A stretch of DNA of 64,000 bases, from positions 26,791 to 90,790 of the forward strand of contig JANQFL010000094.1 of NCBI GenBank assembly GCA_028277845.1. The letters are read 5' to 3'. Below the pieces are notes generated by a model. That model did not search any database and had not been told where the DNA came from. It was given only the letters and a program-made list of their open reading frames with translations. The stretch comes from Sneathiellales bacterium. GTDB taxonomy: Bacteria > Pseudomonadota > Alphaproteobacteria > JANQFL01. Below, in pieces: positions 40,878-63,826 of this stretch. Numbering within the stretch: the stretch's first letter is position 1; each line of letters opens with the position of its first letter. A program made the position numbers and the translations under genes.

Positions 40878-41954
40878 CTAGTTCATGAGACTCCCGACCG
40901 CCGTCTCGTCCCATGCGATGCCGAGGCCGGGGCCGCGCGGCGTGATGGTGCCGTCCACCACCCGCGCCGGTTCCTGCAAAATGGCCGAGGCGATGTCGAG
41001 ATGTTCGAGCCAGTGCGCCGTCGGCGTCACCGCCTGAACGTGGGCCGAGGCTTCGTCGAACAGATGGGACGAGACGGGCAGCGACGCGGCTTCCGCCTGG
41101 CCCATGGCCCGCAGCCAGCCGGTGACGCCACCGATCTTCATGATGTCGAGCATGGCGAAGTCGCTGGCCCCGGCCTGGACCGACAGGGCCATGCCTTCGG
41201 GGAACCACCAGTTCTCGCCGGTCTGGATGGGTACCGGAGAGCGTTCGCGGATGCGGGCGTGGCCCGCCAGGTCTTCCGCCGGCACCGGTTCCTCGATCCA
41301 GCCGATGTCGTACTCGGCGATGGCCTTGATGCAATCGAGGGCATCGGGAACGGTCTGCGACTGGTTGAAGTCGACCATCAGCGCCACGTCGTCGCCGATG
41401 ATGCGGCGCACCGCCGCGACGTTGGCCGCGATGTCGGCGCGGCCGCCCAGCCCCACCTTGATCTTGACCGCCTTGAAGCCCTTCTCGAGCGAGGCTTCGA
41501 GCAGGCCGGCGTCCGCCGCCGGGTCGATCATGCCGTGACTGTCGTAGGCCGGCAGCGGCCGGACCGTGCCACCCAGCAGTTCGACGACGGGCAAGCCGTG
41601 CAGTTTGCCGAGGGCGTCCCACAGGGCCATGTCGATGCCGGCCAGCGCCATGCCCACCAGGCCCTGCCGGCCCATCAGCCGGAACATGTCTTCGGTTTCG
41701 GCCATGATCGCCGCCGGCGCCACCGGACGGCCGGTCAGTTGCGGCGCCAGATTGTCGGTGAAGGCGACGACCGGCGCCATGGTCAGGGCACTGTAGGTGA
41801 AGACATAGGCGTGGCCGGTGACGCCTTCGCTGGTGGCGACGTCGAACAGCACCAGCGGTGCCGCCGGAATGGTGCCCGAGGCGGATTTGAGCGGCACCGC
41901 CAGTGGGGCGATAACGGGGCGGGCGGTGATGGCGCGGATGGTGGCGTCGGTCAT
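40878..41954 (-). CDS. Mandelate racemase/muconate lactonizing enzyme family (enolase superfamily) protein
   Basis: KIKVG (KxK), DFNQ, EEP and the other metal-ligand positions are present. The start was chosen at MTDATIRAI. The track start at 42062 is GTG. Confidence 0.75.
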   Translation of the reverse strand: MTDATIRAITARPVIAPLAVPLKSASGTIPAAPLVLFDVATSEGVTGHAYVFTYSALTMAPVVAFTDNLAPQLTGRPVAPAAIMAETEDMFRLMGRQGLVGMALAGIDMALWDALGKLHGLPVVELLGGTVRPLPAYDSHGMIDPAADAGLLEASLEKGFKAVKIKVGLGGRADIAANVAAVRRIIGDDVALMVDFNQSQTVPDALDCIKAIAEYDIGWIEEPVPAEDLAGHARIRERSPVPIQTGENWWFPEGMALSVQAGASDFAMLDIMKIGGVTGWLRAMGQAEAASLPVSSHLFDEASAHVQAVTPTAHWLEHLDIASAILQEPARVVDGTITPRGPGLGIAWDETAVGSLMN

Positions 41955-41997
41955 GGCGGCAACTCCTTGTGCTGTCCGCCGATCAGAGTACTCTTGC

Positions 41998-42039
41998 CCC
42001 GTCCCATGTATACTCACTCGTCGGTATACATGGGACGGG
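41998..42039. promoter_or_regulatory. Perfect 16-bp inverted repeat (candidate TetR operator) in the divergent intergenic region
   Basis: cccgtcccatgtatac-N10-gtatacatgggacggg. The right arm abuts the ribosome-binding site of the tetR gene. Confidence 0.6.
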
Positions 42040-42046
42040 AGAGGCC

Positions 42047-42610
42047 ATGCCGAAGCAGGCACACGACAGCAGGACCCGGATTCTCGATGCGGCCTACGAC
42101 CTGTTCTATCAGGAAGGCTTCGCCCGGGTCGGTGTCGACGAAATCGCCGACAGGGCCGGCTTCACCAAGCGCACGCTGTACTACCATTTCGACAGCAAGG
42201 ACGCCCTGCTGGCGGCGGTGCTGGACAACCGGGCCGGCCTGTCGCTCGCCCGAATCGAGCAATGGGCCAAAACCGGCGCCGCGACGACGGAGGAAGTGAT
42301 CGACAATCTGTTCACGGCCCTGAAGCGGTGGGTCGAAACGCCGCGCTGGAAGGGTTCGGGTTTCACCCGCCTGGCTATGGAACTGGCCGACCTGAAGGGC
42401 CATCCGGCCCGCACGGTCGCCCGCACCCACAAGGCCGCCATCGAAACCATGCTGACGGATATTCTGCGCGATACGGGCGCGGCGGAACCGGAAAATCTGG
42501 CGATCCAGATCGCCCTGATGTTCGAGGGCGCGCAGGTCCTGACCCTGATCCATGGCGACGTGTCCTACGTCGACCGGGCCCACGCCGCGGCCCGGCGTCT
42601 GGCGTCATGA
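42047..42610 (+). CDS. TetR/AcrR-family transcriptional regulator
   Basis: N-terminal helix-turn-helix RILDAAYDLFYQEGFARVGVDEIADRAGFTKRTLYYHF. The start was chosen at MPKQAHDS with a GGGAGAGG ribosome-binding site. The track ORF starts at 41969. Confidence 0.8.
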   Translation: MPKQAHDSRTRILDAAYDLFYQEGFARVGVDEIADRAGFTKRTLYYHFDSKDALLAAVLDNRAGLSLARIEQWAKTGAATTEEVIDNLFTALKRWVETPRWKGSGFTRLAMELADLKGHPARTVARTHKAAIETMLTDILRDTGAAEPENLAIQIALMFEGAQVLTLIHGDVSYVDRAHAAARRLAS

Positions 42611-43908
42611 CGGAGACCGCCACCCTGCCCCGGCCGGTTCGGCAGTCGGACGCCCTGTTGGCCGAGCGGGAACGCAAAGGCGTGCGCACTCTGACCTTCG
42701 TCCGGGCCGTCGCCCTCGCCATCATCGCCGTCAGCCATTGGGTGGTCGGCGCCAGCGTATTCGAAAAGGTGGCCGCCACGGCCCTGGCCGCCATCGCCGC
42801 CGTCGCCATCGTCGTGTCCGTGGTTCTGCTGGCCCGCAAACGCCATGTCGGCGCCGTCGGTGTCGCCGGCAGCCTCATCGATATCGCCATCCTCGCCGCG
42901 TTGCCGGTCATCTGGTACGTGTCCGTGGGCGGCCAGGCGGTCCCGCCGGCCTATATGCTGAAAACCCAGCTCTCCATCATGTCGCTGACCCTGGTGGCGT
43001 TGAACGCGCTGGCGCTGCGCCCGCTCTATCCCATCCTGGTCGCGGCCGGGGCCGTCGCCGTGCATGGTGCACTGATGGCCTACATCCTGGCCGACGAGCG
43101 TACCGTCGTCGGCGGCTATCTCGACGCCATCATGGGACCGGCCTTGAGCGCCGAATTCACCCTGACCGCCATGATGACGATCGGCCTGGTCGGGCTGATC
43201 ACCGGATACATGGCCTACACCGCCCGCCGCACGGTGGTGCAGGGCGTGCAGCTCGAGGTCTCCAACGCCCGGCTCGGCCGCTACTTCTCACCGGGCGTGG
43301 TCGCCCGCATCGCCGACGAGGGCGGCGGCGTCACGGGTCTGGGCGGCCGCACCCAGGACGTGGCGGTGATGTTCCTCGACATCCGCGGTTTCACGGCGAT
43401 GACCGAGAAACTGGCGCCGTCGGACGCCGTCGCCCTGCTGTCGCAGTACCACGAGCGCATGGTGCAGGAGATCTTCCGCTTCGGCGGCACCATCGACAAG
43501 TTCATCGGCGACGCCATCATGGTCACCTTCGGCACGCCCGACCCGGCAAACGACGATGCCGAACGGGCGGTGCGGGCCGGCCTGGCCATGAACCGGGCGC
43601 TCGCCGACCTCAATGCGGACCGGTCGGCAGCCGGCCAACCGGCGATCCGCCACGGTATCGGCATCCACTACGGGCCGGTCATCGCCGGCAATATCGGCAC
43701 GGAATCCCGGCTGGAATATACCGTCATCGGCGATACCGTGAACGTGGCCAGCCGGGTCGAGGACGCCTGCAAGGCGACCGGCGAGACATTCCTGATCTCG
43801 GACGCGGTCCAGGCCCGGATTCCCGCCGACATCGCCGTGCGCGCCCTGGCCGAACATCAGGTCAAGGGCCGGCAGGCCCCAGTCCGTCTGTTTGCCGTCG
43901 ACGGCTAA
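42607..43908 (+). CDS. Membrane-anchored class III adenylate cyclase (6 TM + cyclase homology domain)
   Basis: Start MTETATL overlaps the tetR stop (ATGA). Six hydrophobic helices. Cyclase-homology-domain motifs FLDIRGFT and KFIGDAIMVTFG, with the adenine-specifying Lys. The track ORF 41818..43908 is an upstream-extended artefact. Confidence 0.8.
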   Translation: MTETATLPRPVRQSDALLAERERKGVRTLTFVRAVALAIIAVSHWVVGASVFEKVAATALAAIAAVAIVVSVVLLARKRHVGAVGVAGSLIDIAILAALPVIWYVSVGGQAVPPAYMLKTQLSIMSLTLVALNALALRPLYPILVAAGAVAVHGALMAYILADERTVVGGYLDAIMGPALSAEFTLTAMMTIGLVGLITGYMAYTARRTVVQGVQLEVSNARLGRYFSPGVVARIADEGGGVTGLGGRTQDVAVMFLDIRGFTAMTEKLAPSDAVALLSQYHERMVQEIFRFGGTIDKFIGDAIMVTFGTPDPANDDAERAVRAGLAMNRALADLNADRSAAGQPAIRHGIGIHYGPVIAGNIGTESRLEYTVIGDTVNVASRVEDACKATGETFLISDAVQARIPADIAVRALAEHQVKGRQAPVRLFAVDG

Positions 43909-44015: not shown

Positions 44016-44774
44016 TTATATTAGTTTGTGTTCTTCCCGAAAGCGGTCGAACCATTGACGACTGGTGCCGTCCGCCATTTTTGCGACATCAGGTTTCACG
44101 CCATAGGCGGCTTCGCGATCCAGCCCAAGGAAATCCAGTACCGTGCCCAATGTCTTCTCAGGAGCGTCAGATAGCGCTTCGTAGGTAATGCGAAGTGGCT
44201 CGATCTGTTCGCGATCGAACCATGTATTCCAATCTCGATCGTAGGCCAGGAACCGCTCAAGTTGGTCATTTATCCTGTCCGCGTCATATGTCGGTGCCCG
44301 GGGGGAAGCCAGCCGTTCCAACTCCGTCCCGTCCGATGACACATGCCACAGCCCGGATTGGTCCGCTTTCACATACGAAATCGCTTGTTCCAGCTTGTCA
44401 CGCCGCGTCAAATGAATGAACGATACTCTTCCGAACACTGCGGCGAGACGCTGGGAATCTCTTGAAAGCGACGGCTGCAGGACAGCCAGTTTCTCGAGGA
44501 AAAAGTCGAAGCTGTGCCTTTGCAGTCTAAGGCCAAAGATACCGGTGTTTCCGCTCCCCTCGGCGATTGCCGCCCGGAAGACTCCATCCAGAAGCTCCCG
44601 TTCCGATCCCGTGGACGTGATCGGCAGGTCATAATAGCCGAGCCACGACTTCAACGACGGTTCATGAAAATACGAACCTGGATGTCCCGCCACACCCGTC
44701 TGAGAAAGCAGCCGGCACAGCAGCGTGCTGCCGCTGCGCGGTGACGTGCAAATGATATAAGAGTCGACGGCCAT
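44016..44774 (-). CDS. Stf0-type sulfotransferase (P-loop, PAPS-binding)
   Basis: ICTSPRSGSTLL 5'-PSB motif and LTRRD 3'-PB-like motif, 252 aa. The local GC is about 55-58% against about 68% in the flanks. Confidence 0.65.
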   Translation of the reverse strand: MAVDSYIICTSPRSGSTLLCRLLSQTGVAGHPGSYFHEPSLKSWLGYYDLPITSTGSERELLDGVFRAAIAEGSGNTGIFGLRLQRHSFDFFLEKLAVLQPSLSRDSQRLAAVFGRVSFIHLTRRDKLEQAISYVKADQSGLWHVSSDGTELERLASPRAPTYDADRINDQLERFLAYDRDWNTWFDREQIEPLRITYEALSDAPEKTLGTVLDFLGLDREAAYGVKPDVAKMADGTSRQWFDRFREEHKLI

Positions 44775-45236: not shown

Positions 45237-46097
45237 CTACAACCAGTCCTCGCGCCACGTGTCGTAGTCGGCCTGACAGGTGATGGCCTGCATCAACTCG
45301 GCCGATGCCTTGCCCGCGATGTCTTCCGGCTCGACGCCGTCGCGCAGCGCTTTCATGGTGGCGTAGACCGCCTGCACCGCCGCCGGGAAGGTCTGGTGGC
45401 CGCGCAGCAGGAAGCGGACGCCGTGGCCGGCGAGCCAGGCCGGGTCGCGCAGGTCCTTCGACCCGCCGCCCAGCAGCAGCGGCACGTTGACGTCCGCCGC
45501 GATGGTTTCAAGATCATCGCGGGATCGCACGCCGACCAGGAACAGGGCGTCGACGCCGGCGGCTTCGTAGGCCTTGCAGCGGGCGACGGCGTCTTCGACC
45601 GACGTCAGATGCGCGGCGGAGGTGCGGCCGGCGATGACCATGTCCGCGTCGCGCCGCGCGGCCAGGGCCGCCTTCATCTTGCCCACCCCTTCCTCGATGC
45701 CGAGCAGCCGCGCCTGGCCGCCCGAGCCGTAGGGCTGCGGCAGGTCGGTGTCCTCGATGGTCAGGCCGGCGATACCGGCGGCTTCCAGTTCCTCCACCGT
45801 GCGCATGACGTTCAGCGCGTTGCCGTAGCCGTGATCGGCATCGGCGAACAGCGGCAGCTCGGACGCCCGGCCCATGCGCATGGCCTGGTCGGCGAATTCG
45901 GACAGGGTCAGCACGATCAAGTCCGGCGCCGCCAATACGGCCAGCGAGGCCAGAGAACCGGCATACATGCCCATCTCGTAGCCCAAATGCTCGGCGATGC
46001 GCACCGAGGCCGGATCGTAGACCGAGGCCGGGTAGACACAGTGCTCGGTGCTGAGGATTTCACGGAAACGGCGGCGGCGGTCGGTCCAGCGCGGCAT
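45237..46097 (-). CDS. Isocitrate lyase/PEP mutase superfamily protein (oxaloacetate decarboxylase / methylisocitrate lyase-like)
   Basis: YDPASVRIAEHLGYEMGMYAGSL, FADADHGYGNA and TIEDT motifs, 286 aa. Confidence 0.7.
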   Translation of the reverse strand: MPRWTDRRRRFREILSTEHCVYPASVYDPASVRIAEHLGYEMGMYAGSLASLAVLAAPDLIVLTLSEFADQAMRMGRASELPLFADADHGYGNALNVMRTVEELEAAGIAGLTIEDTDLPQPYGSGGQARLLGIEEGVGKMKAALAARRDADMVIAGRTSAAHLTSVEDAVARCKAYEAAGVDALFLVGVRSRDDLETIAADVNVPLLLGGGSKDLRDPAWLAGHGVRFLLRGHQTFPAAVQAVYATMKALRDGVEPEDIAGKASAELMQAITCQADYDTWREDWL

Positions 46098-50815: not shown

Positions 50816-53800
50816 ATGACTTCGAGACTGTTTGCGTTCGCGGCCAGTGCGTTTTCCGGCGAGTACGATTGGTGGCAATGGCGGGCCGGCGCGGGTGAGT
50901 TCCATTCGCCGTTCGGTTGGCGGCCGGGCGGTGTGTCAGCCACAGTCGGCACCTTCGAAGTCGCCGGCAGCATGGCGGCCCTGCCGACGGATCCCCGCTT
51001 CTCCGATCAGTGGCATCTTCAGAACACCGGCCAGAACGGCGGCACGGCGGGTGTCGACATCAACGTCGTACCGGTCTGGGACGATTATACCGGCCAGGGC
51101 GTCACCATCGGTATCGTCGATTCCGGTGTGCAGTACACCCATCCGGACCTCGCGCCCAACTACAACACATCGATCGACTACGATGCCTGGGGGCGGGATG
51201 ACGACCCGGCGCCCAACAGCAGCGAAGATCACGCGACGGCGACCACCGGCACCGCGGCCGCCGCGGCCAATAACGGCACCGGCGTGGTCGGTGTCGCCCA
51301 TGGTGCCGAGGTGGCCGGCTTCCGCATGGACTTCGACAGCGGCACCCAGGGGCAGATCGCCGACAACATGGCCCGGCAGGTGGACGTCGACATCTCCAAC
51401 AACAGTTGGGGTTACGGCGGCTACTTTTTCGACGATTTCGACTCCAGCACTTTCGCCGCGTCGGCGGCCGGCATCGAAAACGCCGTCTCCGCGGGGCGCG
51501 GCGGCTTGGGCACGGTGTTCGTCTTCGCCGCCGGCAACGACGGCGACAGCGGCCAGGACGTCAATTATCACAGCTTCCAGAACTCGCCGTATACCATCGC
51601 CGTCGGCGCCGTCGACAATACGGGCGCCCGGGCCGATTTCAGCACGCCCGGCGCGGCACTGCTGGTCTCGGCCCCCGGTGTGGATATCGTCACCACGGAC
51701 AAGACCGGCAGCGGCGGGTACGTCTCCGGCGATTACGTCACCATCGACGGCACGTCGTTCTCGTCGCCCATCGTCGCGGGCACCGTGGCGCTCATGCTCG
51801 AAGCCAACCCGAACCTGGGTTACCGCGACGTCCAGGAAATCCTCGGCTATTCGGCCAGGTCGGACAAGCTGACCGGCTCGTCGTGGCAGATCAACGGCGC
51901 CGAAAACTGGAACGGGGGCGGCCTGCATGTCAGTCACGATTTCGGCTTCGGCCTGGTCGACGCCCACGCGGCGGTCCGGCTGGCCGAAACGTGGACCCTG
52001 CAGCACACCTACAGCAACCTCGCCTCCCATTCGACGGTCGCGCAGGTCAATCAGGCGATCAACGACTTCCAGCCCGTCTATTCGACCATCACCGTCGCGG
52101 ACACCGGGGCGCTGCAAATCGATCACGTCAGGGTCGACCTGGACATCGATCACACCTGGGTCGGCGACCTCCACATCACGCTGACGTCCCCCGACGGCAC
52201 CGAGAGCGTCCTGATCAACCGGCCGGGCAAGACGTCGTACAATCGATACGGCACCAGCCGGGACGACATCAAATTCGAGGTGACCAGCACCCAGTATTGG
52301 GGCGAAAACGGCGTCGGCGACTGGACCCTGAGAGTGAACGATGCCGTGTCCGGCGATCAGGGCACATTCAACGATTGGACCCTGACGCTGGAAGGCGATC
52401 CGGTCACCGACGATGACCTCTATGTCATCACCGACGAGTTCGTCGCCGCCGGCAATTCCGGTTTCACCATCGACGACAGCGCCGGAACCGATACGGTCAA
52501 CGCCGCCGCCGTGACGACGGATACGGTCCTCAATCTCACGCCCGGGCTCATGAGCAGTATCGCCAACGGCAGCTTCTATCTCGACCCGGCGACACTGATC
52601 GAAAACGCTTACACCGGCGACGGCAACGACCAGCTCATCGGCAACACCGCCGACAACGTCTTGGACGGCGGCCGGGGCGACGACAATCTGTTCGGCGGCC
52701 TCGGTAATGACGAACTGATCGGCGGCGCCGGCGACGACGTCATGGAAGGTGGCGAGGGAGAGGACGTCGCCGTTTTCTCGGGCAACCTCGCCGATTACGA
52801 CATCGTCGTCGACAACGCCATTATCACCGTCACCGATCTGAACGCCGGCGATCGCGATGACGGCACCAATACCCTGACCGGCATCGAGGGCGCCCAGTTC
52901 GCCGATCAATACGTCTCGTTCAATTTCGAGCCGCCGGACAATGTCCCACCGGTCGCGGTCGACGACGCATTGGCGGCCACTGAAGACACGGCCCTGACAT
53001 TCGGCGCCACGGATCTGCTGGCCAACGACAGCGATGCCAATGGCGACGGCCTGTCGCTGACATATTTCACCCAGCCGGCCCATGGCGCGTTGGCGGACAA
53101 TGGCGACGGCACGCTGACCTACACCCCGGACGCCGATTATTTCGGCAGCGATAACTTCACGTACACCGTATCGGACGGCTACGTCACCGACACCGGCACC
53201 GTGGCCATCACCGTCGCCCCGGTCAATGACCAGCCGGTCGCCGCGGACGACAGTACTTATACCCATGAAAATACGCCGCTGGTGATCGATACCTCCAGCC
53301 TGCTTGGCAACGACACCGATGTGGACGGTGACACACTCTCCATTACTGCCTTGTCACAGCCGGGTAATGGAAGCGTGGTCGACAACGGCGACGGCACGCT
53401 CACATACACACCAAACGCGGAATACTTCGGCGACGACAGTTTTACCTATACCGTTTCCGACGGTCAGGGGGCATCGGACACGGCCACCGTCGACGTCAGA
53501 GTCATATTCGTCAACAACCCGCCGGTCGCGGTTGATGACACCGCGACGACCGATGAAGACCAAACCATCACTATTCCGATCGCGACCCTGCTTGGAAACG
53601 ACAGCGACGCCGATGGGCATGCGCTTGAGATATATAGCCTCAGCAATCCGAACAACGGAAGCGTATACAAGAACACCTCCGCCGGTACCGTCGTATATCG
53701 CCCCAACCCGGACTTTAACGGCACGGACACATTCACATACAAAGCGTTTGACGGCTACAACACTAGCAATACAGCCACCGTTACCATAACAGTCAACCCA

Positions 53801-56800
53801 GTCAATGACGCACCGACGGCGAACGCCGACAGTATCGTCACCGACGAAGACACGCCGGTGGCTTTCTCATCGGTCGCCTTGCTGGCCAACGATACCGATG
53901 CCGAAGGAGACAACCTGATCATCGTCGGTGTCAGCGATGGATCCGACGGCACGGTCAGCGACAATGGTGACGGCACGTACACCTACACGCCGAACGCAGA
54001 TTTCGCTGGCCTTGACACGCTGACCTACAGCGTTGAAGACGGTCGGGGCGGCGTCAGCAACGGCACGATCACCGTCACGGTGAACAGTATCAATGATAAG
54101 CCGGTTGCCGTTGACGACAACCTAGTCACCGACGAGGACACCGCCTTTGTCATCGCCGCTGCTGATTTGCTGGCAAACGACAGTGATCCCGACGGCGATA
54201 CCTTGACGCTGACCAGCATCTCGACGGCAACCAATGGCCACCTCCATGACTTTGGCGACGGGACGTATAATTACCGGCCGAGCCAGGATTTTTACGGCAC
54301 CGATCAACTGACCTATACGGTCAGCGATAGTCAAGGCAACTCCGATACCGCCACGGTCACCATCACGGTCAATTCAGTTAACGACAGGCCGTATACCCAA
54401 GACGATGCCTTCGTCACCCATCAAAACGATCCGGTAACATTCACCAACGCCCAACTGCTCGCCAATGATATCGACCGGGAGGGTGACACGCTTGAAGTAA
54501 CCTATGTGCATCTGGTTGCACACGGAGAATTGGTTGACAACGGGGACGGCACATACACCTACACACCGGCCTATGGCTTTTCGGGAGAAGACTGGGCTTG
54601 GTACGGCATCGTCGACAGCAATGGAGGCACGAATTTCGACTCAGGCCGTGTTTCCTTCGATGTCCAATTGGATCAGAACAATATCGAACCGGTTGCCGGC
54701 GACGACTTCTTCGTCACCAACAAGGACGCGGCACTGGTCATCAGTGCTGCCGACTTGCTTTCCAATGATACGGATGCGGACGTCAATGACGCACTCACCG
54801 TTTGGAGCCACATGCAACCGAACAACGGTAGCGTGGTCGATAACGAGGACGGCACGTTCACGTACACCCCGAATGCGGGATTTGTCGGCACGGACCAGTT
54901 CGAATACTGGCTGTTTGACGGCAACCATGTCCTGAACGGCAAAAGCATTGGACGCGTCTTCGTTACAATCAATCCGGACAACATCACGCCGGTAGCTGGT
55001 GATGACACCGTCACCACGGACGAAGACACACCCATTATCATCGCAACAGCCGACCTGCTGGCCAATGATGGTGACGGCGATGGCGATGCGCTGTCCATCA
55101 CTACGATCTCACAAGGACAGAACGGCTCGCTGACGGACAATGGCGACGGCACGTTTACCTATACGCCAAACGCCCATTTCCATGGCTCCGACAACCTGAC
55201 TTACAACGTCACCGATGGCAAGGGTGGCAACGACACGGCAACGGTCGACATTACCGTCAACTCGGTCAACGATATTCCTGTCGCCGTCGACGATACATAC
55301 GGATCCGAAGAAGATACACCGCGAACCCTGTATGCCGCTCAATTCACGCATAATGATGTGGACGATGATGGTGATCCGCTGACGATCACGTTCTTATCAC
55401 AGGGCGAGCACGGCACCATTATCGACAATGGAGACGGCACATACACCTACACGCCCGACGCCGACTATTACGGACCGGAGACGTTCACCTACATCGTATC
55501 CGACGGCAATGGCGGCAGTGATACCGGCACGATGACCTACACTGTGTATGCAGTCAACGACTACCCGGTCGCCGTGGATGACACTTTCTCCACGTACAAG
55601 AATACCTCTCTGGGCTTCACTGCCAATGATCTGTTGGCCAACGACTACGACATCGAAGGCGACCCGCTGTCGATTGAACACATCTGGACACCTCCCAATG
55701 GGTCGATAGTCGACCATGGCGACGGAACCTATACATACACCCCCAATAATGGTTTTGTCGGAAACGACACCTTCCGCGTTCGTGTATCGGAGATCAACGA
55801 CGACCATTTAACCAACGACTCGTTCATCACCGTCGTTGTCACACCGGAACCTCCCGCGGTATCGGCAGCGGACGATACCGTCAGAACCGAAGAAGATTCA
55901 TCGGTCATCATCGCCGCGGCCGACCTGCTGACCAACGACGTCGATCTCGAGGGCGACGATTTATCGATCACCGATCTTACATCAACCAGCAATGGCACGC
56001 TGATCGACAATGGCAATGGCACCTACACCTACACGCCAATTGCCGATTTCAACGGCAGCGACAGCTTTACCTATACTGCCTCGGACGGTAATGGCAACAG
56101 CGACACCGCCACCGTCCGTATCACGATCGACCCCGTCAACGACGTACCGGTCGCCGCCGACGACGCGGTCACGACGGACGAAGACACGCCGCTGATCATG
56201 GCCGCCGCCACACTGACCGGCAACGACAGCGATGCCGACGGCGACGCGCTGACGATTACCGCGGTATCGGACGGGGCCAACGGCAGCGTCGCGCTGAACG
56301 GTGACGGTTCGGTGACATACACCCCCGACGCCAACTTCAACGGCAGCGACAGCTTCTCGTACACGGTGTCCGACGGCAATGGCGGCGCCGACACGGCCAC
56401 GGTCTCGGTCACAATCAACCCGGTCAACGACGCCCCCATCGTGCCGGACGTGTACCTGACGGTGGATGAAGACCAGTTCAACTACGTTTCGGCCGCCGAC
56501 CTGCTGGCGAACGTCACCGATATCGAAGGCGACGTGGACCCCGGCGACTGGCAGCCGATCACCTGGTCCGAACCGGCGCACGGCACCATATGGACGTCCA
56601 CCACAAGCGGCAGCGGGAGCGGAAGCGGCTACGGTGGTCAGTTTGATTACGGAGGCGTAGGCGGTATCGGCAGCTGGGACGGGATCGGCAGCGGGCTCGG
56701 ATTCGGCGGAAGCATAGGCGGAAGTACCGATGTCTTTATCCCGTCGGAAATCGTAAGTCTCGGTTTCGGACCGCGTGAACAAGACCAGGCGGACGCGGGC

Positions 56801-59800
56801 CAGGGGGAATTGCGGGCCATGGACGCGTCCCCCTTGTACATCAACTATTCGCCGGACCCGGATTACAACGGCACGGATCAATACACCTTCACGGTGACCG
56901 ACGCCAATGGCGCCTCGGGCAGCGGCACCGTGTACATCACCATCAATCCGGTCAACGACGCGCCGGTGGCGGCGGACGACACCGTGACCACCCAGCAGGG
57001 CGCGGCCGTGATCGCCACGCCGCTGGCCAACGACGGCGATGTCGACGGCGACGCGCTGAACATCAGCGGCTTCACCCAGGCGGCCAACGGCACCGTCGCC
57101 GACAACGGGGACGGCACGCTCACCTATACGCCCTACGCCGACTTCTTCGGGCTCGACAGTTTCACCTACACGATTTCCGACGGTCAGGGCGGCAGCGATA
57201 CCGCCACCGTCGGTGTCACCGTCGACGAGTTGCCGCCCAACACGGTCAGCTACGCCGACGAGGGCGCCGGCCTCACCGCCACATTGACCAGCGATGCGTT
57301 CGTCATGTCGACGAACGGTGTCGGCAATACCCCCCTCACCGGCGAGTTCCGGGAAGATGACCTGGTCGTCTGGGACGGTTCGACCCATAACCGTTTTCTC
57401 AACGCAGACGACATCGGCCTCGACGCCAACATCGATGCCCTGTTCGTCCGATCCAATGGCAATATCGTTTTCTCCACGTCAAGCTCCGGCAATCTGAACG
57501 GCATCGGCAATTTCGGCGACGAAGACCTGATCGAATGGGACGGCACGGCGTTTTCCATGTGGTTCGACGCCGGCGCCAACGGCATCGACACCGGCGAGGA
57601 CATCGACGCCGTTCATGTGCTCGAAAACGGCAATCTGATCCTGTCGACCACCGGCGGCGCCAGCGTCGACCAGAACGGCGGCGGCACCCTCGGTCTCGAG
57701 GACGGCGATCTGTTCGAATTCAACCCCGGCACCACCACGGTCGACGGACTGGCGGCGAAGACCGCCCGCCTGGTCTTCTCGGAGGACGATTTCCTCGGCA
57801 ACGAGGATATCGATGCCACCTCGCAATTGGCCGACGGCACCACGGTCCTTTCGACCATGGGTTCCGCCACCCTGCCCGTCTCGCAATCCTTCGCCGATGA
57901 AGACCTGGTGCAATGGGACGGCACGGCGGCCGGCAAGCTGTTCGACGGCGGCGGCAATGACCTCGAGACCTACACCGAAGACATCGACGCCGTGCACATG
58001 CTGGTCAACACCGGCGCGGCGGCGGGCGCCGATTACGCCGGCATCAACAATCTGATCGGCACGGCCTTCGACGATACCCTCGTCGGCCACGACGCCGAGA
58101 ACCGGCTGGAAGGCGGCGGCGGCGACGACATTCTGATCGGCGGCGGCGGCAACGACATTCTCGTCGGCGGCGCGGGGGCCGATATTCTCATCGGTGGCCT
58201 GGGGGCCGACACGTTCGTCTTCACCGCCGCCGACCTCGGCACCGGTCTCGACAAGATCTACCGCTACGACCAGACCGGCGTTCCCGTCGAGCAAAGCGAC
58301 AACCTGGATTTGAGCGGCCTCTTCCTGGGCGGGCCCGTGCCCGACCGGGATACGATCGACCAGTTCCTCAGATTTCAGGACGACGGCGACTGGGTGATCA
58401 TGCAGGTCGATACCGACGGCAGCGGCGGCTCCGCCGGCTTCCAGGACCTCGCCCATTTCACCGTCCGGCCGTTTGCCATTAGCGACCTGCCGGGTCTGAT
58501 GGACAACGGCAAGATCATCGTCGGCACGCCCAACGAAAACCCGGTGGCGGGGAACGACACGGCGGCGACCGACGAAGATACCCCGCTGATCATCGCCGCC
58601 GCCGATCTGCTGGCCAACGACAGCGACGGAGACGGCGACAGCCTGTCGGTCACGGCCATCTCGAACGGCGCCCACGGGAACCTGAGCGACAACGGCAACG
58701 GCACGTTCACCTATACGCCCGATGCCAACTACAACGGGGCCGACAGCTTCACCTACACGGTATCCGATGGCCGTGGTGGTAGCGATACCGGCACGGTTGA
58801 TATTTCGGTTGTGTCGGTCAACGACGCACCATCGGCAGAGAACGACATCCACTACACAGACGAAAACGTCCCTATAATCATAAGTATCGCCGATCTGCTG
58901 TCCAACGACTCGGACATCGACGGCGGGACTCTGTCTGTCGTCAGTTTCACACAAGGCGTTATTGGCAGTGTCGTCGACAATGGCGACGGCACGATAACCT
59001 ATACGCCCGAACCGAACCGATGGGGCGCCGACCGCTTCACCTACACCGTTTCGGACAATCAGGGCGGCAGCGATACGGCAGAGGTCATTGTCGACATCAC
59101 CATGGTCAATTATCGGCCGACTGCGGTTGACGACAGTGTTTCAACCGACGAGGACACGGGGATTGTCATTACCTACGCCAGCCTGCTTGCCAACGATTAC
59201 GATGTCGATGGCGATTCGCTGGGATTCCGTTGGTATGACCAGCCGCAGAACGGACATATCGTTGATGACCATTACGGGACCCTGACATACACGCCCGACG
59301 CCAACTTCTTCGGCACCGATACATTCGTCTACTACGCCAACGATGGCAGGGTGTTCAGTAATCCGGCCATCGTGACGGTGACCGTCAACCCCATCGACGA
59401 CGCGCCAGTCGCCACCGATGACAGTGTTTCCACCCTCGAAGACAGGCCATTGATCATCGGTGCCAATGTTTTGGCAAACGACATCGACGTCGACGGCGAC
59501 GGGTTAACCATCACCGGCGTGTCACAAGGAAACCATGGAACCGTTTCCAACAACGGTGATGGCACGTACACCTACACCCCGGATGCCGACTATGCCGGTC
59601 CGGACACAGTTACATACACGGTGTCAGATGGTCAGGGTGGCAGCGATATAGCCACTGTCGACATCACGTTGGATTCGGTTAATGACGAACCGGTCGCTGC
59701 AGACGACAACTTCTCAACGGACGAAGACCTTCCCTTGCTTGTCACCGTTGTCGATTTGTTGGCCAACGACAGTGATACAGAAGGCGACGGACTTAGTATT

Positions 59801-62800
59801 GCCGCGGTAACACAAGGCGTAAACGGCAGCGTTATCGACAATGGCGACGGCACATTCACCTACACGCCGAATGCCGACTTCCATGGATCCGACAGCTTCT
59901 CTTACACCGTTTCCGATGGTAATGGCGGCAGCGATACAGCGACCGTCGCCATCACAGTCAATCCGGTCAACGACGCGCCAGTGGCTGCAGACGACGCCTT
60001 GTGGCTCGACGAAGATACGACGCTGACCATCACTACGGCTGATTTAATCGGCAACGACGGCGACGCCGAAGGTGACAGCCTGACCGTAACGTCGGTATCC
60101 CAAGGCACGCATGGCAGCGTCACCAACAATGGCGACGGCACCTTCACATATAGCCCCGGCATCAATTACAACGGCGCCGACAGCCTGACCTACACGGTCT
60201 CCGACAGCAATGGTGGCGAAGCTACTGCAAGCATCTCCATCACCGTAGACCCTGTCAACGACGCGCCTGTAGCGGCGGATAATTCCTTCTTCTCGCAAGA
60301 GGACGTCCCGACTTCATTGTCGCTCGGCCTACTGCTTGCGGGAGCAACCGACGTTGACGGAGATAACTTGATACTCGCCGGGTATACGCAACCGGTCTAC
60401 GGCACCCTCACCGAAAATAGTCATGGCCATTTCGTCTATCTGACGAACGCCAATTTCTACGGCACCGACAGTTTCACTTACACCGTTTCTGACGGCAACG
60501 GTGGCAGCGACACCGCCACAATGACCGTCAATGTTCTCCCGGTAAACGACTGGCCAATTCCGACTGACGATGACGTGGTGGCTGACGAGGACACGCCGCT
60601 GATTATTGCTACGGCCGATCTTCTCGCCAATGACACAGATATCGAGGGTGACAGCCTTTCATTCGGTAGCCTCATTGAAGGCTCGTACGGAACCGTCGTC
60701 AACAATGGCGATGGCACGATCACGTATACGCCGGATTCCAACTTCAATGGTTTCGATTCGTTCCGATACTTTGTCCGCGATCACAGCAGCACACAGATCG
60801 GCACTGTTAATGTCACTGTCAATCCAGTCAACGATGCACCGACGGCAGAAATCGATTCGTTCTTAACGCCGACGAATACGTCTGCAATCATCAGCGCGGC
60901 GCAACTTGTTTCCAACGACACCGATATTGACGGTGACAGCCTGTCGGTGACCGGATACACGCAAGGATCCAATGGCAACATCACCGACAACGGGGACGGA
61001 ACGTTCACATATACCCCGGACACGGATTTCGTCGGCTTCGACACTTTCGATTACACCGTTTCGGATGGCAGTGACAGCAGCACGGCAACGGTCACCGTAA
61101 CTGTCGGGCTTGGCAACTTTGCGCCTGTTGCAAACGACGATTCATTTACGACCGACGAGGATTCGCCGTTCATCTTTACGAAAGCGGACTTGCTCGCCAA
61201 CGACGTCGACCTCAACGGCGACTTCCTAAATCACGCCGGTTTCCGTTCGCCTCTGCCCCGCGACTTTGATTTGGAATGGATTGAAGGCCACACTTGGTCC
61301 TTCGTCCCGGATGCCGATTTCGCCGGCGTCGCACACTTTTATTATCAAATCTATGACTCGTCCGGAGAATGGAATGAAGGCCAGGTCACCGTCACCGTCA
61401 ACCCGGTCAACGACGCACCCGTCGCTGTCGACGACATTGTCAAAGCTCAAATTGACACGCCACTCGTCATCGACGGTACAGATCTTGTTGCCAATGACAG
61501 CGATATTGACGGTGACGACCTGACGGTCGCCGGTTTCACACAAGCAGCCAACGGAAGTGTTACGGACAATGGCAACGGCACATTAACCTACACCGCAAAT
61601 ACCGGATTTAGCGGCACTGATGTCTTTACCTATTCTACCTCCGACGGTAACGGCGGCAGTGATGTCGCCACAGTCAATGTCCTAGTAAGTGCGATCGACG
61701 CAGTCGATGATAACGTTACTACAAACGAAGATGCCCCACTGGTCATCGCCTTTGCCGATCTACTGGCCAATGACGACGGGAATGGCAATGACCTGACGCT
61801 GACCGATTTCTCTCAAACTTCCAACGGCACCCTCACTGACAATGGCGACGAAACCTTCACCTACACGCCGGACGCCGATTACTACGGGTCCGACAACTTC
61901 ACCTACACCGTCTTTGACGGCAGCGATATCAGTTTCGCCACCGTCGCTGTCACCGTCGACCCAGTTAATGACGCGCCGGTTGCGGTGGACGCCCTTCTCA
62001 CCGCGATTGAAGATTCGACACGCACGATTCAGCCGTTCAGATTCTTACACAACGACACCGATCCCGATGGCGACAGCCTAACAATAGTCGACGTTACCCA
62101 AGCACAGCACGGCAGTGTCACCCTCAATGCTGACGGCACGGTCACATACATTTCGGATGCCGACTACAGCGGCCCCGACACCTTCACCTATACGATTTCG
62201 GATGGTGAGCTGACCTCCACTGCCAACGCTTTTGTTGACGTGCAGGCCCGCAATGATCGGCCGGTGGCAGCCGACGACAGTGTCACAACCAACGAAAACG
62301 CACCGGTTACCTTCAGTGCAGCAAGCCTGCTGGCCAACGATACCGATGTCGACGGCGACGCCTTAAGCATCATTGGGTTCAGTCAAGCCACGGGCGGATC
62401 GGTCAGCAATAATGGCGACGGCACGCTGACCTATACGCCGAACTCCGGCTTTACCGGGACTGACAGCTTCACTTACACCGTCTCCGACGGCAATGGCGGG
62501 TCGGATACGGCGACGGTTCATGTGACCGTCGGGCCGGCCGGCGGGCGGATCGATGACGAGACGTTCTCCTATGTCGATGCCAGTACCGGCGTCACCGCCA
62601 ATCTGGGCAGCGAGGCGTTTGTCTTCTCGACCTACCGCGGCGGTTCGGTCGACGGTGTCGGCGGCTTCGCCGACGAGGACCTGTTGCTGTGGGACGGTTC
62701 CGAATACAGCAAATTGCTGGACGGCGGATCGGTGGGGCTGAGTGCGTCGGATGAAAACATCGATGCCCTGTTCGTCCGCGCCAACGGCAATATCGTGTTC

Positions 62801-63826
62801 TCGACCACCGGCGCCGGCAGTGTGGCCGGTCTCGGCGCCTTCGCCGACGAGGACCTGATCGAATGGGACGGCACAAGCTTCTCCATGCTGTTCGACGGCA
62901 GCGAAAGTAGCCTGGGCAGCGCCGTGGATATCGACGGCGTGCATATTCTGGACAACGGCAACCTCGTTCTCTCCACCGTGTCCGATCACGCCCTGCCGGA
63001 CGGCGCCGGCGGTACGCTGGCCGCGCTGGATGGCGACCTGATCGAGTACAATCCGGGATCGGCCGCCGTCGACGGACTGGCGCCGCAAGCGGCGCGCATC
63101 GTCTTCGCCGAGGACACCTTCGTCAGCAGCGATGATATCGATGGTGCCTCGATGCTGTCCGACGACACCATGGTCATAACGGTCAAGGGCTCGGAAGGCC
63201 TGCCCGGCTTGGGTTCGTTCTACGACGAAGACCTGGTTTCCTGGGACGGCGTCACGGGCGATCTGTACTTCGACGGCAGCACCCACGGATTGTCGTCGTC
63301 GAGCGAAGACACCGACGCTGTGCACGTGCTCGATAACAGCGGCGAGGCCGTGGGCGACGACTTCTCCGGCCTCATCAATCTGATCGGTTCGGACCATGGC
63401 GACATTCTGGTCGGCAACGGCGCCGGCAATACCCTGACGGGCGGCGGCGGCGGCGACATCCTGATCGGCGGTCTCGGCGCGGACATTTTGGCCGGCGGCG
63501 CCGGCGGCGACACGCTGATCGGCGGGCTGAACGGCGATACCTACGCCTTTGCCGCCAGCGACGGCGTGGACACCGTCATCGGCTTCGACCGGGCCGAGGG
63601 CGACGTGCTCGACTTCCGCGACCTGTTCGACGGCGGCCCCGCCCCGGACGCCGCGACCGTCGGTCAATTCCTCGACGTCGCGGTGGGGGACGACAGCGCG
63701 ACCCTGCGTGTCGACATGGACGGCGGCGGCAACGGCTTTACCGATCTGGCCACTTTCGCCGGCGTGCCGTTCGGCAACGCGGATCTCGCGTCCATGCTGC
63801 AGGACGGGACGATCCTGGTGATCTGA
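50816..63826 (+). CDS. Giant (4336 aa) secreted multidomain protein: kexin-like S8 peptidase + P-domain, RTX repeats, about 28 VCBS/cadherin-like tandem repeats, two T1SS-type C-terminal modules
   Basis: A single uninterrupted frame with a GGAG ribosome-binding site 8 nt upstream. The N-terminus has DPRFSDQWHLQN, GIVDSG (Asp), DHATATTGTAAA (His) and GTSFSSP (Ser), followed by a proprotein-convertase P-domain (DLHITLTSPDGTES...WTLTLEG). Then come RTX GGxGxD nonapeptides and about 95-aa repeats with the ANDxDxDGDxL...DNGDGTxTYTPxxxFxGxDSFTYTVSDGxGGSDTATV...VNDAPVA pattern. The C-terminus resembles a type I secretion target domain. Confidence 0.85.
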   Translation: MTSRLFAFAASAFSGEYDWWQWRAGAGEFHSPFGWRPGGVSATVGTFEVAGSMAALPTDPRFSDQWHLQNTGQNGGTAGVDINVVPVWDDYTGQGVTIGIVDSGVQYTHPDLAPNYNTSIDYDAWGRDDDPAPNSSEDHATATTGTAAAAANNGTGVVGVAHGAEVAGFRMDFDSGTQGQIADNMARQVDVDISNNSWGYGGYFFDDFDSSTFAASAAGIENAVSAGRGGLGTVFVFAAGNDGDSGQDVNYHSFQNSPYTIAVGAVDNTGARADFSTPGAALLVSAPGVDIVTTDKTGSGGYVSGDYVTIDGTSFSSPIVAGTVALMLEANPNLGYRDVQEILGYSARSDKLTGSSWQINGAENWNGGGLHVSHDFGFGLVDAHAAVRLAETWTLQHTYSNLASHSTVAQVNQAINDFQPVYSTITVADTGALQIDHVRVDLDIDHTWVGDLHITLTSPDGTESVLINRPGKTSYNRYGTSRDDIKFEVTSTQYWGENGVGDWTLRVNDAVSGDQGTFNDWTLTLEGDPVTDDDLYVITDEFVAAGNSGFTIDDSAGTDTVNAAAVTTDTVLNLTPGLMSSIANGSFYLDPATLIENAYTGDGNDQLIGNTADNVLDGGRGDDNLFGGLGNDELIGGAGDDVMEGGEGEDVAVFSGNLADYDIVVDNAIITVTDLNAGDRDDGTNTLTGIEGAQFADQYVSFNFEPPDNVPPVAVDDALAATEDTALTFGATDLLANDSDANGDGLSLTYFTQPAHGALADNGDGTLTYTPDADYFGSDNFTYTVSDGYVTDTGTVAITVAPVNDQPVAADDSTYTHENTPLVIDTSSLLGNDTDVDGDTLSITALSQPGNGSVVDNGDGTLTYTPNAEYFGDDSFTYTVSDGQGASDTATVDVRVIFVNNPPVAVDDTATTDEDQTITIPIATLLGNDSDADGHALEIYSLSNPNNGSVYKNTSAGTVVYRPNPDFNGTDTFTYKAFDGYNTSNTATVTITVNPVNDAPTANADSIVTDEDTPVAFSSVALLANDTDAEGDNLIIVGVSDGSDGTVSDNGDGTYTYTPNADFAGLDTLTYSVEDGRGGVSNGTITVTVNSINDKPVAVDDNLVTDEDTAFVIAAADLLANDSDPDGDTLTLTSISTATNGHLHDFGDGTYNYRPSQDFYGTDQLTYTVSDSQGNSDTATVTITVNSVNDRPYTQDDAFVTHQNDPVTFTNAQLLANDIDREGDTLEVTYVHLVAHGELVDNGDGTYTYTPAYGFSGEDWAWYGIVDSNGGTNFDSGRVSFDVQLDQNNIEPVAGDDFFVTNKDAALVISAADLLSNDTDADVNDALTVWSHMQPNNGSVVDNEDGTFTYTPNAGFVGTDQFEYWLFDGNHVLNGKSIGRVFVTINPDNITPVAGDDTVTTDEDTPIIIATADLLANDGDGDGDALSITTISQGQNGSLTDNGDGTFTYTPNAHFHGSDNLTYNVTDGKGGNDTATVDITVNSVNDIPVAVDDTYGSEEDTPRTLYAAQFTHNDVDDDGDPLTITFLSQGEHGTIIDNGDGTYTYTPDADYYGPETFTYIVSDGNGGSDTGTMTYTVYAVNDYPVAVDDTFSTYKNTSLGFTANDLLANDYDIEGDPLSIEHIWTPPNGSIVDHGDGTYTYTPNNGFVGNDTFRVRVSEINDDHLTNDSFITVVVTPEPPAVSAADDTVRTEEDSSVIIAAADLLTNDVDLEGDDLSITDLTSTSNGTLIDNGNGTYTYTPIADFNGSDSFTYTASDGNGNSDTATVRITIDPVNDVPVAADDAVTTDEDTPLIMAAATLTGNDSDADGDALTITAVSDGANGSVALNGDGSVTYTPDANFNGSDSFSYTVSDGNGGADTATVSVTINPVNDAPIVPDVYLTVDEDQFNYVSAADLLANVTDIEGDVDPGDWQPITWSEPAHGTIWTSTTSGSGSGSGYGGQFDYGGVGGIGSWDGIGSGLGFGGSIGGSTDVFIPSEIVSLGFGPREQDQADAGQGELRAMDASPLYINYSPDPDYNGTDQYTFTVTDANGASGSGTVYITINPVNDAPVAADDTVTTQQGAAVIATPLANDGDVDGDALNISGFTQAANGTVADNGDGTLTYTPYADFFGLDSFTYTISDGQGGSDTATVGVTVDELPPNTVSYADEGAGLTATLTSDAFVMSTNGVGNTPLTGEFREDDLVVWDGSTHNRFLNADDIGLDANIDALFVRSNGNIVFSTSSSGNLNGIGNFGDEDLIEWDGTAFSMWFDAGANGIDTGEDIDAVHVLENGNLILSTTGGASVDQNGGGTLGLEDGDLFEFNPGTTTVDGLAAKTARLVFSEDDFLGNEDIDATSQLADGTTVLSTMGSATLPVSQSFADEDLVQWDGTAAGKLFDGGGNDLETYTEDIDAVHMLVNTGAAAGADYAGINNLIGTAFDDTLVGHDAENRLEGGGGDDILIGGGGNDILVGGAGADILIGGLGADTFVFTAADLGTGLDKIYRYDQTGVPVEQSDNLDLSGLFLGGPVPDRDTIDQFLRFQDDGDWVIMQVDTDGSGGSAGFQDLAHFTVRPFAISDLPGLMDNGKIIVGTPNENPVAGNDTAATDEDTPLIIAAADLLANDSDGDGDSLSVTAISNGAHGNLSDNGNGTFTYTPDANYNGADSFTYTVSDGRGGSDTGTVDISVVSVNDAPSAENDIHYTDENVPIIISIADLLSNDSDIDGGTLSVVSFTQGVIGSVVDNGDGTITYTPEPNRWGADRFTYTVSDNQGGSDTAEVIVDITMVNYRPTAVDDSVSTDEDTGIVITYASLLANDYDVDGDSLGFRWYDQPQNGHIVDDHYGTLTYTPDANFFGTDTFVYYANDGRVFSNPAIVTVTVNPIDDAPVATDDSVSTLEDRPLIIGANVLANDIDVDGDGLTITGVSQGNHGTVSNNGDGTYTYTPDADYAGPDTVTYTVSDGQGGSDIATVDITLDSVNDEPVAADDNFSTDEDLPLLVTVVDLLANDSDTEGDGLSIAAVTQGVNGSVIDNGDGTFTYTPNADFHGSDSFSYTVSDGNGGSDTATVAITVNPVNDAPVAADDALWLDEDTTLTITTADLIGNDGDAEGDSLTVTSVSQGTHGSVTNNGDGTFTYSPGINYNGADSLTYTVSDSNGGEATASISITVDPVNDAPVAADNSFFSQEDVPTSLSLGLLLAGATDVDGDNLILAGYTQPVYGTLTENSHGHFVYLTNANFYGTDSFTYTVSDGNGGSDTATMTVNVLPVNDWPIPTDDDVVADEDTPLIIATADLLANDTDIEGDSLSFGSLIEGSYGTVVNNGDGTITYTPDSNFNGFDSFRYFVRDHSSTQIGTVNVTVNPVNDAPTAEIDSFLTPTNTSAIISAAQLVSNDTDIDGDSLSVTGYTQGSNGNITDNGDGTFTYTPDTDFVGFDTFDYTVSDGSDSSTATVTVTVGLGNFAPVANDDSFTTDEDSPFIFTKADLLANDVDLNGDFLNHAGFRSPLPRDFDLEWIEGHTWSFVPDADFAGVAHFYYQIYDSSGEWNEGQVTVTVNPVNDAPVAVDDIVKAQIDTPLVIDGTDLVANDSDIDGDDLTVAGFTQAANGSVTDNGNGTLTYTANTGFSGTDVFTYSTSDGNGGSDVATVNVLVSAIDAVDDNVTTNEDAPLVIAFADLLANDDGNGNDLTLTDFSQTSNGTLTDNGDETFTYTPDADYYGSDNFTYTVFDGSDISFATVAVTVDPVNDAPVAVDALLTAIEDSTRTIQPFRFLHNDTDPDGDSLTIVDVTQAQHGSVTLNADGTVTYISDADYSGPDTFTYTISDGELTSTANAFVDVQARNDRPVAADDSVTTNENAPVTFSAASLLANDTDVDGDALSIIGFSQATGGSVSNNGDGTLTYTPNSGFTGTDSFTYTVSDGNGGSDTATVHVTVGPAGGRIDDETFSYVDASTGVTANLGSEAFVFSTYRGGSVDGVGGFADEDLLLWDGSEYSKLLDGGSVGLSASDENIDALFVRANGNIVFSTTGAGSVAGLGAFADEDLIEWDGTSFSMLFDGSESSLGSAVDIDGVHILDNGNLVLSTVSDHALPDGAGGTLAALDGDLIEYNPGSAAVDGLAPQAARIVFAEDTFVSSDDIDGASMLSDDTMVITVKGSEGLPGLGSFYDEDLVSWDGVTGDLYFDGSTHGLSSSSEDTDAVHVLDNSGEAVGDDFSGLINLIGSDHGDILVGNGAGNTLTGGGGGDILIGGLGADILAGGAGGDTLIGGLNGDTYAFAASDGVDTVIGFDRAEGDVLDFRDLFDGGPAPDAATVGQFLDVAVGDDSATLRVDMDGGGNGFTDLATFAGVPFGNADLASMLQDGTILVI
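52940..57240 (+). repeat. Tandem array 1 of about 14 VCBS/cadherin-like repeats of about 95 aa (protein-coding) inside the giant gene
   Basis: A recurrent (P)VAxDD...LLANDxDxDGDxL...VNDxP period is visible in the translation. The repeats have diverged at the DNA level. Confidence 0.8.
58535..62540 (+). repeat. Tandem array 2 of about 14 VCBS/cadherin-like repeats of about 95 aa inside the giant gene
   Basis: The same repeat family as array 1, with GC about 47-55%, clearly below the protease and RTX segments. Confidence 0.8.

Follow-up and report, generated by a model that had tools for sequence, protein, structure and literature searches.

The window analysed here is a stretch of 64,000 nucleotides from a Sneathiellales bacterium (GenBank assembly GCA_028277845.1, contig JANQFL010000094.1, positions 26,791 to 90,790), and it contains one very long open reading frame (ORF) predicted to encode a giant protein of the kind exported by type I secretion systems (T1SS). 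The protein closes with a module made up of a four-repeat, propeller-like beta domain of about 260 amino acids (aa), a block of RTX nonapeptide repeats and an end domain of about 100 aa, and the same three parts were found, in the same order, in the middle of the protein. The internal copy is referred to below as module A and the C-terminal copy as module B. The reading which we favour, with a probability of roughly 0.6, is that of one giant T1SS-type protein in which module A arose long ago by tandem duplication of the C-terminal cassette (RTX repeats plus end domain, with its head) and in which the internal cassette acts as a folding, or ratchet, module.

An old internal duplicate of the C-terminal module

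Module A (aa 2142-2572) was compared with module B (aa 3908-4336) using BLASTP and the two were found to be 50% identical (64% positives over 431 columns with 13 gaps, E = 6e-116), in a single, collinear alignment which runs from the first blade to the last residues and is far beyond chance. An earlier note, made from the sequence alone, had proposed that an internal copy of the C-terminal secretion module was present, and this protein-level alignment identifies the internal module as a true paralogue of the C-terminal one. The range given in that note (57240-58535) begins one base off the frame and meets stop codons when translated; the codon-correct range is 57239-58531. The strings quoted there were all present, at aa 2433 for the RTX block and at aa 2531 and aa 4299 for the internal and terminal end segments, respectively. 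Three FxDEDL[VIL]xWDG units had also been claimed for the internal module, two of which are exact (aa 2233 and aa 2359), while the third is one substitution off (FREDDLVVWDG). The fourth blade of module A is degenerate (LEDGDLFEFNPG), and module B contains three exact copies of the motif.

Both end domains were recognised by the curated NCBIfam model TIGR03661 (type I secretion C-terminal target, VC_A0849 class), which has a cut-off of 17.6 bits. The terminal copy scored 35.3 bits over profile positions 1-89 of 91, with the match ending four residues before the stop codon (the protein ends ...QDGTILVI-stop), and the internal copy scored 24.0 bits over profile positions 9-63 of 91 only. A secretion-target-like domain is thus recognised mid-protein by a curated model, as had been suggested. 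The internal copy was also found to retain every position conserved in the family, as well as the terminal motif G-x-[IL]-[IL]-V. With regard to the features expected of a T1SS substrate, the TIGR03661 domain lies at the extreme C-terminus (in module B) and Gly/Asp-rich RTX repeats lie upstream of it (PF00353 in module A and in the N-terminal region, the latter with an E-value of 2.7e-11); the PF00353 match in module B is weaker, at 17.9 bits, and falls under the gathering score of 23.

The module copies are old. At the DNA level they are 66% identical, and identity at four-fold sites is 63%, compared to about 40% expected from composition. An assembly or sequencing artefact, in which a chimeric join or a collapsed repeat had produced the internal module, is hardly credible. 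Misassembly of short reads is common for giant repetitive adhesin genes (bioRxiv 10.1101/2025.09.30.679566), but with modules at this distance, and with no pair of DNA repeats within the gene above 77% identity, there is nothing for an assembler to confuse. In addition, the frame is open for 13 kb as a single ORF, and a contig of the independent Logan assembly (L001, run SRR20820740) is base-for-base identical to the window across 13,916 nt which include the gene.

Each module is preceded by an array of 14 tandem-95 units, giving an extender of 28 units in total, and the duplication may therefore have involved more than the module. A matrix of unit-against-unit scores was double-centred and its diagonal, on which each unit of array A meets the unit at the same position in array B, was found to be enriched; the mean residual was +13.8, with 11 of 14 positive (permutation p = 0.0075), so that a unit of A has, on average, its closest counterpart at the same position in B. 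The earlier proposal of two units in tandem, each consisting of a repeat array plus a module, was upheld in this respect. The equal number of units and their pairing give modest support to the duplication of one array-plus-module block of approximately 1766 aa. BLASTP of the two halves of the protein gave 45-47% identity in several registers and for this reason cannot prove duplication of the arrays, and the correlation of 'consensus-likeness' along arrays A and B was not significant. Unit 13 of array A is broken by a Gly/Ser-rich insertion of low complexity, about 90 aa in length (SGSGSGSGYGGQFDYGGVGGIGSWDGIGSGLGFGGSIGGS...; approximately 56528-56791, aa ~1905-1992); the counterpart of this unit in array B has no such insertion.

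The coordinates of the giant ORF, its parts and the neighbouring genes are given in Table 1.

Table 1. Features of the giant ORF and neighbouring genes (positions within the window; aa, residues of the giant protein)
Feature	Position	Strand	Basis or remark
Giant ORF	50816..63826	+	4336 aa; range includes the stop codon
S8 peptidase, subtilisin-type (aa 93-379), and proprotein-convertase P-domain (aa 435-525)	51092..52390	+	Pfam PF00082 4.9e-46, PF01483 1.7e-24
First RTX beta-roll region, serralysin-C-terminal-like (aa ~531-705)	52406..52930	+	PF00353, NF035945
Array A, 14 tandem-95/Cadherin_5/Big_9 units (aa 709-2139)	52940..57232	+	phmmer unit map; Pfam and NCBIfam matches
Module A, propeller-like domain, four repeats of ~58 aa (aa 2142-2405)	57239..58030	+	52% identical to module B copy; AF2; Foldseek
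Module A, linker and RTX nonapeptide block (aa 2405-2467)	58028..58216	+	PF00353 1.3e-10; beta-roll strands in model m629b97c4f01e
Module A, internal T1SS C-terminal-target-like domain (aa 2465-2572), ending ...MDNGKIIVGTP	58208..58531	+	TIGR03661; 43% identical to terminal copy
Array B, 14 tandem-95 units (aa 2573-3908)	58532..62539	+	phmmer unit map; junction sequence
Module B, propeller-like domain (aa 3908-4170)	62537..63325	+	Alignment to module A
Module B, RTX block and true C-terminal T1SS target domain (aa 4170-4336; end domain aa 4241-4336)	63323..63823	+	TIGR03661
Adenylate/guanylate cyclase-domain ORF	41818-43908	+	
Stf0-type sulfotransferase	44016-44774	-	
PEP-mutase-family protein	45237-46097	-	

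Recurrence and predicted fold of the end domain

A profile of the two end domains was searched against 1.84 billion representative proteins, with no limit on length, and the copies were mapped locally in the best 150 proteins. The domain was found at the extreme C-terminus only in 119 of these, at the C-terminus and at least once internally in 19, and internally only in nine. Many of the matches are short metagenomic fragments, and length classes of at least 400 aa and at least 1000 aa were used for this reason. Among these best 150 matches, terminal plus internal copies occur in 19 of the 83 representatives of at least 400 aa and in nine of the 35 of at least 1000 aa, both of which are upper estimates because the ranking favours multi-copy proteins. 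When seven multi-copy proteins were re-tested with TIGR03661, two to three copies were recognised in every one. Identity between the copies within a protein ranges from about 26% to 84%, which indicates that such duplications happened repeatedly and at different times, and the internal copies across the family keep the 'terminal' motif G-x-[IL]-[IL]-[VLF]. In four proteins (P0172, P0176, P0179 and P0195) a tandem-95/cadherin-like unit was found within a few residues after the internal copy, as is the case in the giant protein.

The internal position of a secretion domain had been described in the earlier note as unexpected, a view which is contradicted both by these counts and by the match of the predicted fold to known internal RTX modules (see below). 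The internal copy is real, is not a one-off and is only moderately unusual. In the open-access literature searched, no account of an internal copy of this target domain was found. The 'type I secretion C-terminal target' domain is not confined to C-termini, being internal, with its motif intact, in about a quarter of the longer members sampled; for annotation purposes, an internal match to it should not be taken as a gene end, a frameshift or a fusion error. Internal end-domain copies are also present in other classes of enzyme. P0163 (730 aa) consists of an alginate lyase and a Big_9 unit followed by two cassettes of RTX repeats plus end domain which are 64% identical, while in P0113 (754 aa, named 'serralysin' by JGI) a segment resembling the end domain lies at aa 269-384, well away from the C-terminus.

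The internal RTX and end segment (aa 2405-2572) was modelled with AlphaFold2 (AF2) on an alignment of 39 family sequences and was predicted to form one compact unit, with a predicted local distance difference test (pLDDT) score of 91 and a predicted template modelling (pTM) score of 0.88. In the model a beta-roll leads into additional strands and a short helix, and the KIIV motif forms a short strand at the end. An initial AF2 model of the end domain was dropped as unreliable and the family-alignment model was used in its place. The best matches among solved structures using Foldseek were the R-modules R1, R3 and R2 of AlgE6 (2ml1, 2ml3 and 2ml2; template modelling (TM) score 0.58-0.66, E about 1e-6, 28-30% identity), with further matches to RTX block V of CyaA, the C-terminal domains of serralysin and PrtC, and the lipase MIS38. 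AlgE, CyaA and the other matches are exactly the known cases of iterated or internal capped RTX modules. A sequence profile search of the PDB with the end domain alone returned nothing significant. An RTX beta-roll which continues into a beta-rich C-terminal part, as in an R-module, was found in the predicted structure, and R-modules also occur in several copies, internal positions included, as do the cassettes described here (two in the giant protein, and more than one in the 19 family representatives of at least 400 aa).

On the basis of this model, the 'secretion-target' domain is most readily understood as forming the C-terminal half of a folding unit that resembles an R-module, and the last strand of the domain would serve as an export tag only when it is terminal. 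The predicted place of KIIV as the closing strand of the fold accounts for the terminal motif being conserved in internal copies, without a role as a signal. The secretion signal itself seems to coincide with the strand that closes a capped RTX folding module, which would tie the recognition step of export to the calcium-ratchet step.

The mannuronan C-5-epimerases of Azotobacter vinelandii (AlgE enzymes) are the nearest parallel by predicted fold. They are calcium-dependent, secreted proteins with repeated units of a functional and an RTX module, in which RTX modules are both internal and terminal (PMC12269086); each enzyme has from one to seven R-modules, with AlgE1 arranged as A1-R1-R2-R3-A2-R4 (PMC12269086). 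In AlgE6 only the last R-module carries a predicted secretion signal (PMC3049221), whereas the internal copy in the giant protein keeps the entire end domain, and the repeated unit in the giant protein, at approximately 1766 aa, comprises 14 cadherin-like units and a propeller-like head rather than a catalytic A-module. CyaA of Bordetella pertussis has five RTX blocks with C-terminal capping segments and is likewise a type I substrate in which RTX repeats plus cap are iterated, but its blocks are contiguous within one RTX domain, while the cassettes of the giant protein are 1766 aa apart and each has its own array and head. The architecture is a large-scale variant of this known AlgE/CyaA theme, which recurs in the end-domain family, and the giant protein is an extreme case of it, in which a stalk, head and roll unit of approximately 1766 aa has been duplicated behind a protease of secreted type.

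The giant RTX adhesins (LapA, MpIBP, FrhA and those of Aeromonas, Vibrio and Legionella) also have a long Ig/cadherin-like extender, ligand-binding domains near the C-terminal end, internal beta-rolls and an RTX plus T1SS end (bioRxiv 10.1101/2025.09.30.679566; PMC12077191), and internal RTX beta-rolls have been noted in them previously (bioRxiv 10.1101/2025.09.30.679566). A tandem Ig/cadherin-like extender with a C-terminal RTX/T1SS end is present in the giant protein, in the form of the 28 tandem-95 units and module B. In contrast to these adhesins, the giant protein holds the whole extender, head and end cassette twice, begins with an S8 protease and a P-domain, and has no N-terminal retention module; the LapG-type di-alanine motif [TAP]AA[GV] was found only at aa 563, 2370 and 2401, outside an N-terminal plug of the LapA type. 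The label 'adhesin' given to the protein in the earlier note is only partly apt, as the N-terminus is a subtilisin/kexin-like protease and not the retention module of an adhesin.

The first 700 aa instead share their S8, P-domain and RTX parts with RTX subtilisin/kexin-like exoproteases, and they are 47-67% identical to a large family of such proteins of 700-1200 aa. Tandem-95 units, from one to three in number, also occur in a few members of this family. Local profile searches found the propeller-like domain in none of the 120 members listed and an end-domain match in only one (P0341, a single terminal copy). No copy of the end domain was detected in the first RTX region of the giant protein, as the end-domain profile finds only two stretches in the whole protein. 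The homologue searches covered proteins of up to approximately 1.75 times the length of the query (758 aa for a query of 433 aa, 434 for 264 and 1222 for 700), a range outside which giant relatives fall, while the profile search of representative proteins described above had no length limit. The protein has no cysteines and is strongly acidic, with 710 Asp and Glu residues against 84 Lys and Arg (19 Lys and 65 Arg). Such a cysteine-free and acidic composition is usual for RTX proteins. The ATG at 50816, which is the annotated start, gives the protein an odd leader of 53 residues, and Met54 may be the real start.

Export, cleavage and the origin of the internal module

The favoured reading may be set out as follows. 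The protein is built as an S8/kexin-like protease with a beta-roll, then a unit of 14 cadherin-like units, a propeller-like head and an RTX beta-roll with an end domain, and then the same unit of approximately 1766 aa again. The duplication most likely encompassed the entire array together with its cassette, with loss of the stop codon. Type I substrates are exported as unfolded chains, beginning with the C-terminus. The ATP-binding cassette (ABC) transporter would read only the true C-terminus of the full-length protein, which would be exported once in this manner. RTX blocks are described as needing a C-terminal cap for calcium-induced folding, with folding from the C- to the N-terminus acting as a Brownian ratchet in export (PMC6891781, citing Bumba et al. 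2016). As the internal cassette emerges, calcium would similarly fold its RTX roll against the end domain, which would be the C-terminal cap, and the folded cassette could then provide a second ratchet against backsliding half-way along a very long chain, as well as a rigid joint. The internal propeller-like domain would be a second ligand-binding head on the stalk. The internal copy is therefore most likely, judging from the modelled fold, a calcium-driven folding module with a second binding head and not an independent export signal.

A number of results weigh against this reading. No genes for a T1SS ABC transporter, membrane fusion protein or outer membrane factor were found when ORFs of the 50 kb upstream were scanned, and only 174 nt of the window follow the stop codon, so that the export route is inferred from the domains only. 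Nothing of the end domain, NGKIIV included, has been lost from the internal copy, and a signal that was still functional would look the same. Collinearity of the two arrays is weak: an unrestricted best-diagonal test over all diagonals was not significant (p = 0.10), and no order was seen in the raw best-partner lists of the 28 tandem-95 units. The confident model of the RTX and end segment depends on the 39 aligned family segments; with the shallow alignment used in the first AF2 run, the end domain had a pLDDT below 50.

That the internal end domain is instead a working second signal, by which an N-terminal half that had been cleaved or truncated would be exported alone, or the transporter would be re-engaged in mid-chain, is improbable. 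It would agree with the passing of the curated T1SS C-terminal model by the internal copy, with the retention of every family-conserved position and of G-x-[IL]-[IL]-V, with the resemblance of each unit to the complete C-terminal part of a type I substrate and with the presence of a protease domain within the same protein; moreover, truncated CyaA which ends inside the RTX repeats can use repeats as alternative signals, according to Sebo & Ladant 1993 as cited in PMC3034196. As outlined above, however, conservation of the motif is explained by the last strand being predicted to be part of the fold, and closely spaced copies, of which many relatives (P0076 and P0165 among them) have two to four with a period of about 190-280 aa, would be pointless as separate export units. 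Cleavage would also have to take place in the cytoplasm, before export, where RTX proteins stay unfolded (PMC6891781), and the junction has no spacer, recognisable processing site or self-processing module. The possibility raised in the earlier note that the protein is cut into two independently exportable pieces found no support in the sequence. There is no Asp-Pro bond in aa 2100-2700 and no self-processing domain among the Pfam and NCBIfam matches of module A, in which respects the protein differs from the self-processing FrpC/ApxIVA type. Dibasic sites are lacking in all 4336 aa, where about 1.6 would be expected by chance, so that their absence alone is not significant, and no internal start with a ribosome-binding site was found at the boundary of module A and array B. 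A broader form of the same idea, in which giant type I substrates are concatenated 'poly-substrates' whose internal end domains are still competent signals, with exportable products released by truncation, phase-variable frameshift or proteolysis at the boundaries, or with the transporter re-engaging, is similarly unlikely to hold. If it did, re-engagement would account for the threading of chains that are several thousand residues long, and conservation of the internal 'terminal' motif in many unrelated proteins would reflect selection for signal function and not for the fold only. The giant protein is a natural construct for asking if an internal end domain still drives export.

A fusion of two adjacent paralogous genes for type I substrates, in which the stop codon of the first gene and the DNA between the two were lost, could have given the same arrangement as an internal duplication, and is a less remote but still doubtful explanation. 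Module A resembles a complete gene end, type I substrates need no N-terminal signal, so that a downstream gene could start with a tandem-95 unit, and the 14 units on either side, with their collinearity, suit a duplicated gene pair as well as they suit an internal duplication. The junction itself argues against fusion: the hydrophobic KIIV motif of the end domain is followed by three residues (GTP) and then by a full-consensus tandem-95 start (NENPVAGNDTAATDED...), with no relic of a spacer, start codon or ribosome-binding site, and an equally tight junction of end domain and tandem-95 unit recurs independently in P0176, P0179 and P0195. No relative with a split arrangement was found either, though the collections searched (genome contigs, two metagenome scans and protein clusters) hold no close relative or orthologue at all; the genome-contig scan gave only six distant loci, the two metagenome scans gave no matches and the giant protein forms a singleton cluster. 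An old in-frame duplication within one gene, with the internal cassette retained as a folding module, remains the reading we prefer.

The propeller-like domain and the gene neighbourhood

The propeller-like domain is marked by the motifs F-x-DEDL-x-x-WDG and DIDA-x-H-x-L-x-NGN-x-x-x-ST. It has no Pfam family, and PDB searches with its sequence found no relative. Residues 20-255 of module A were predicted by AF2 to form an all-beta repeat structure with a pLDDT above 90, and the Foldseek matches of the domain in the PDB were all beta-propellers, at a low TM score of 0.2-0.3. From the model, the domain of about 260 aa can be called propeller-like and is probably four-bladed.

As RTX repeats dominated the homologue search when the whole module was the query, the search was rerun with the propeller-like domain alone. 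The domain was found in small PEP-CTERM-anchored proteins, in RTX/T1SS proteins and in unrelated giant surface proteins of several metagenome-assembled genomes (MAGs) (P0121-P0161; L002-L007). The combination of propeller-like domain, end domain and, in some cases, RTX repeats forms the true C-terminus of P0009, P0136 and the ORF at locus L006 of a Kiloniellaceae MAG. From its distribution in these sequences it looks like an undescribed mobile domain of extracellular or surface proteins. The giant protein brings to notice this uncharacterised propeller-like surface domain, for which natural combinations with T1SS, PEP-CTERM and other anchors exist.

The flanks of the giant gene were scanned for promoters, terminators and Rfam families, and nothing was found. 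Several long overlapping ORFs at 39.4-43.9 kb and 46.2-49.9 kb had no Pfam match. The Lon and NuoG proteins encoded in the window were both singletons at 90% identity in a collection of 15 billion proteins, and the lineage is therefore poorly sampled. The 50 kb upstream of the giant gene contain the nuo (complex I) operon, lon, clpX and the genes for trigger factor and RNase J, as well as metabolic genes, with core chromosome at 1962-29046.

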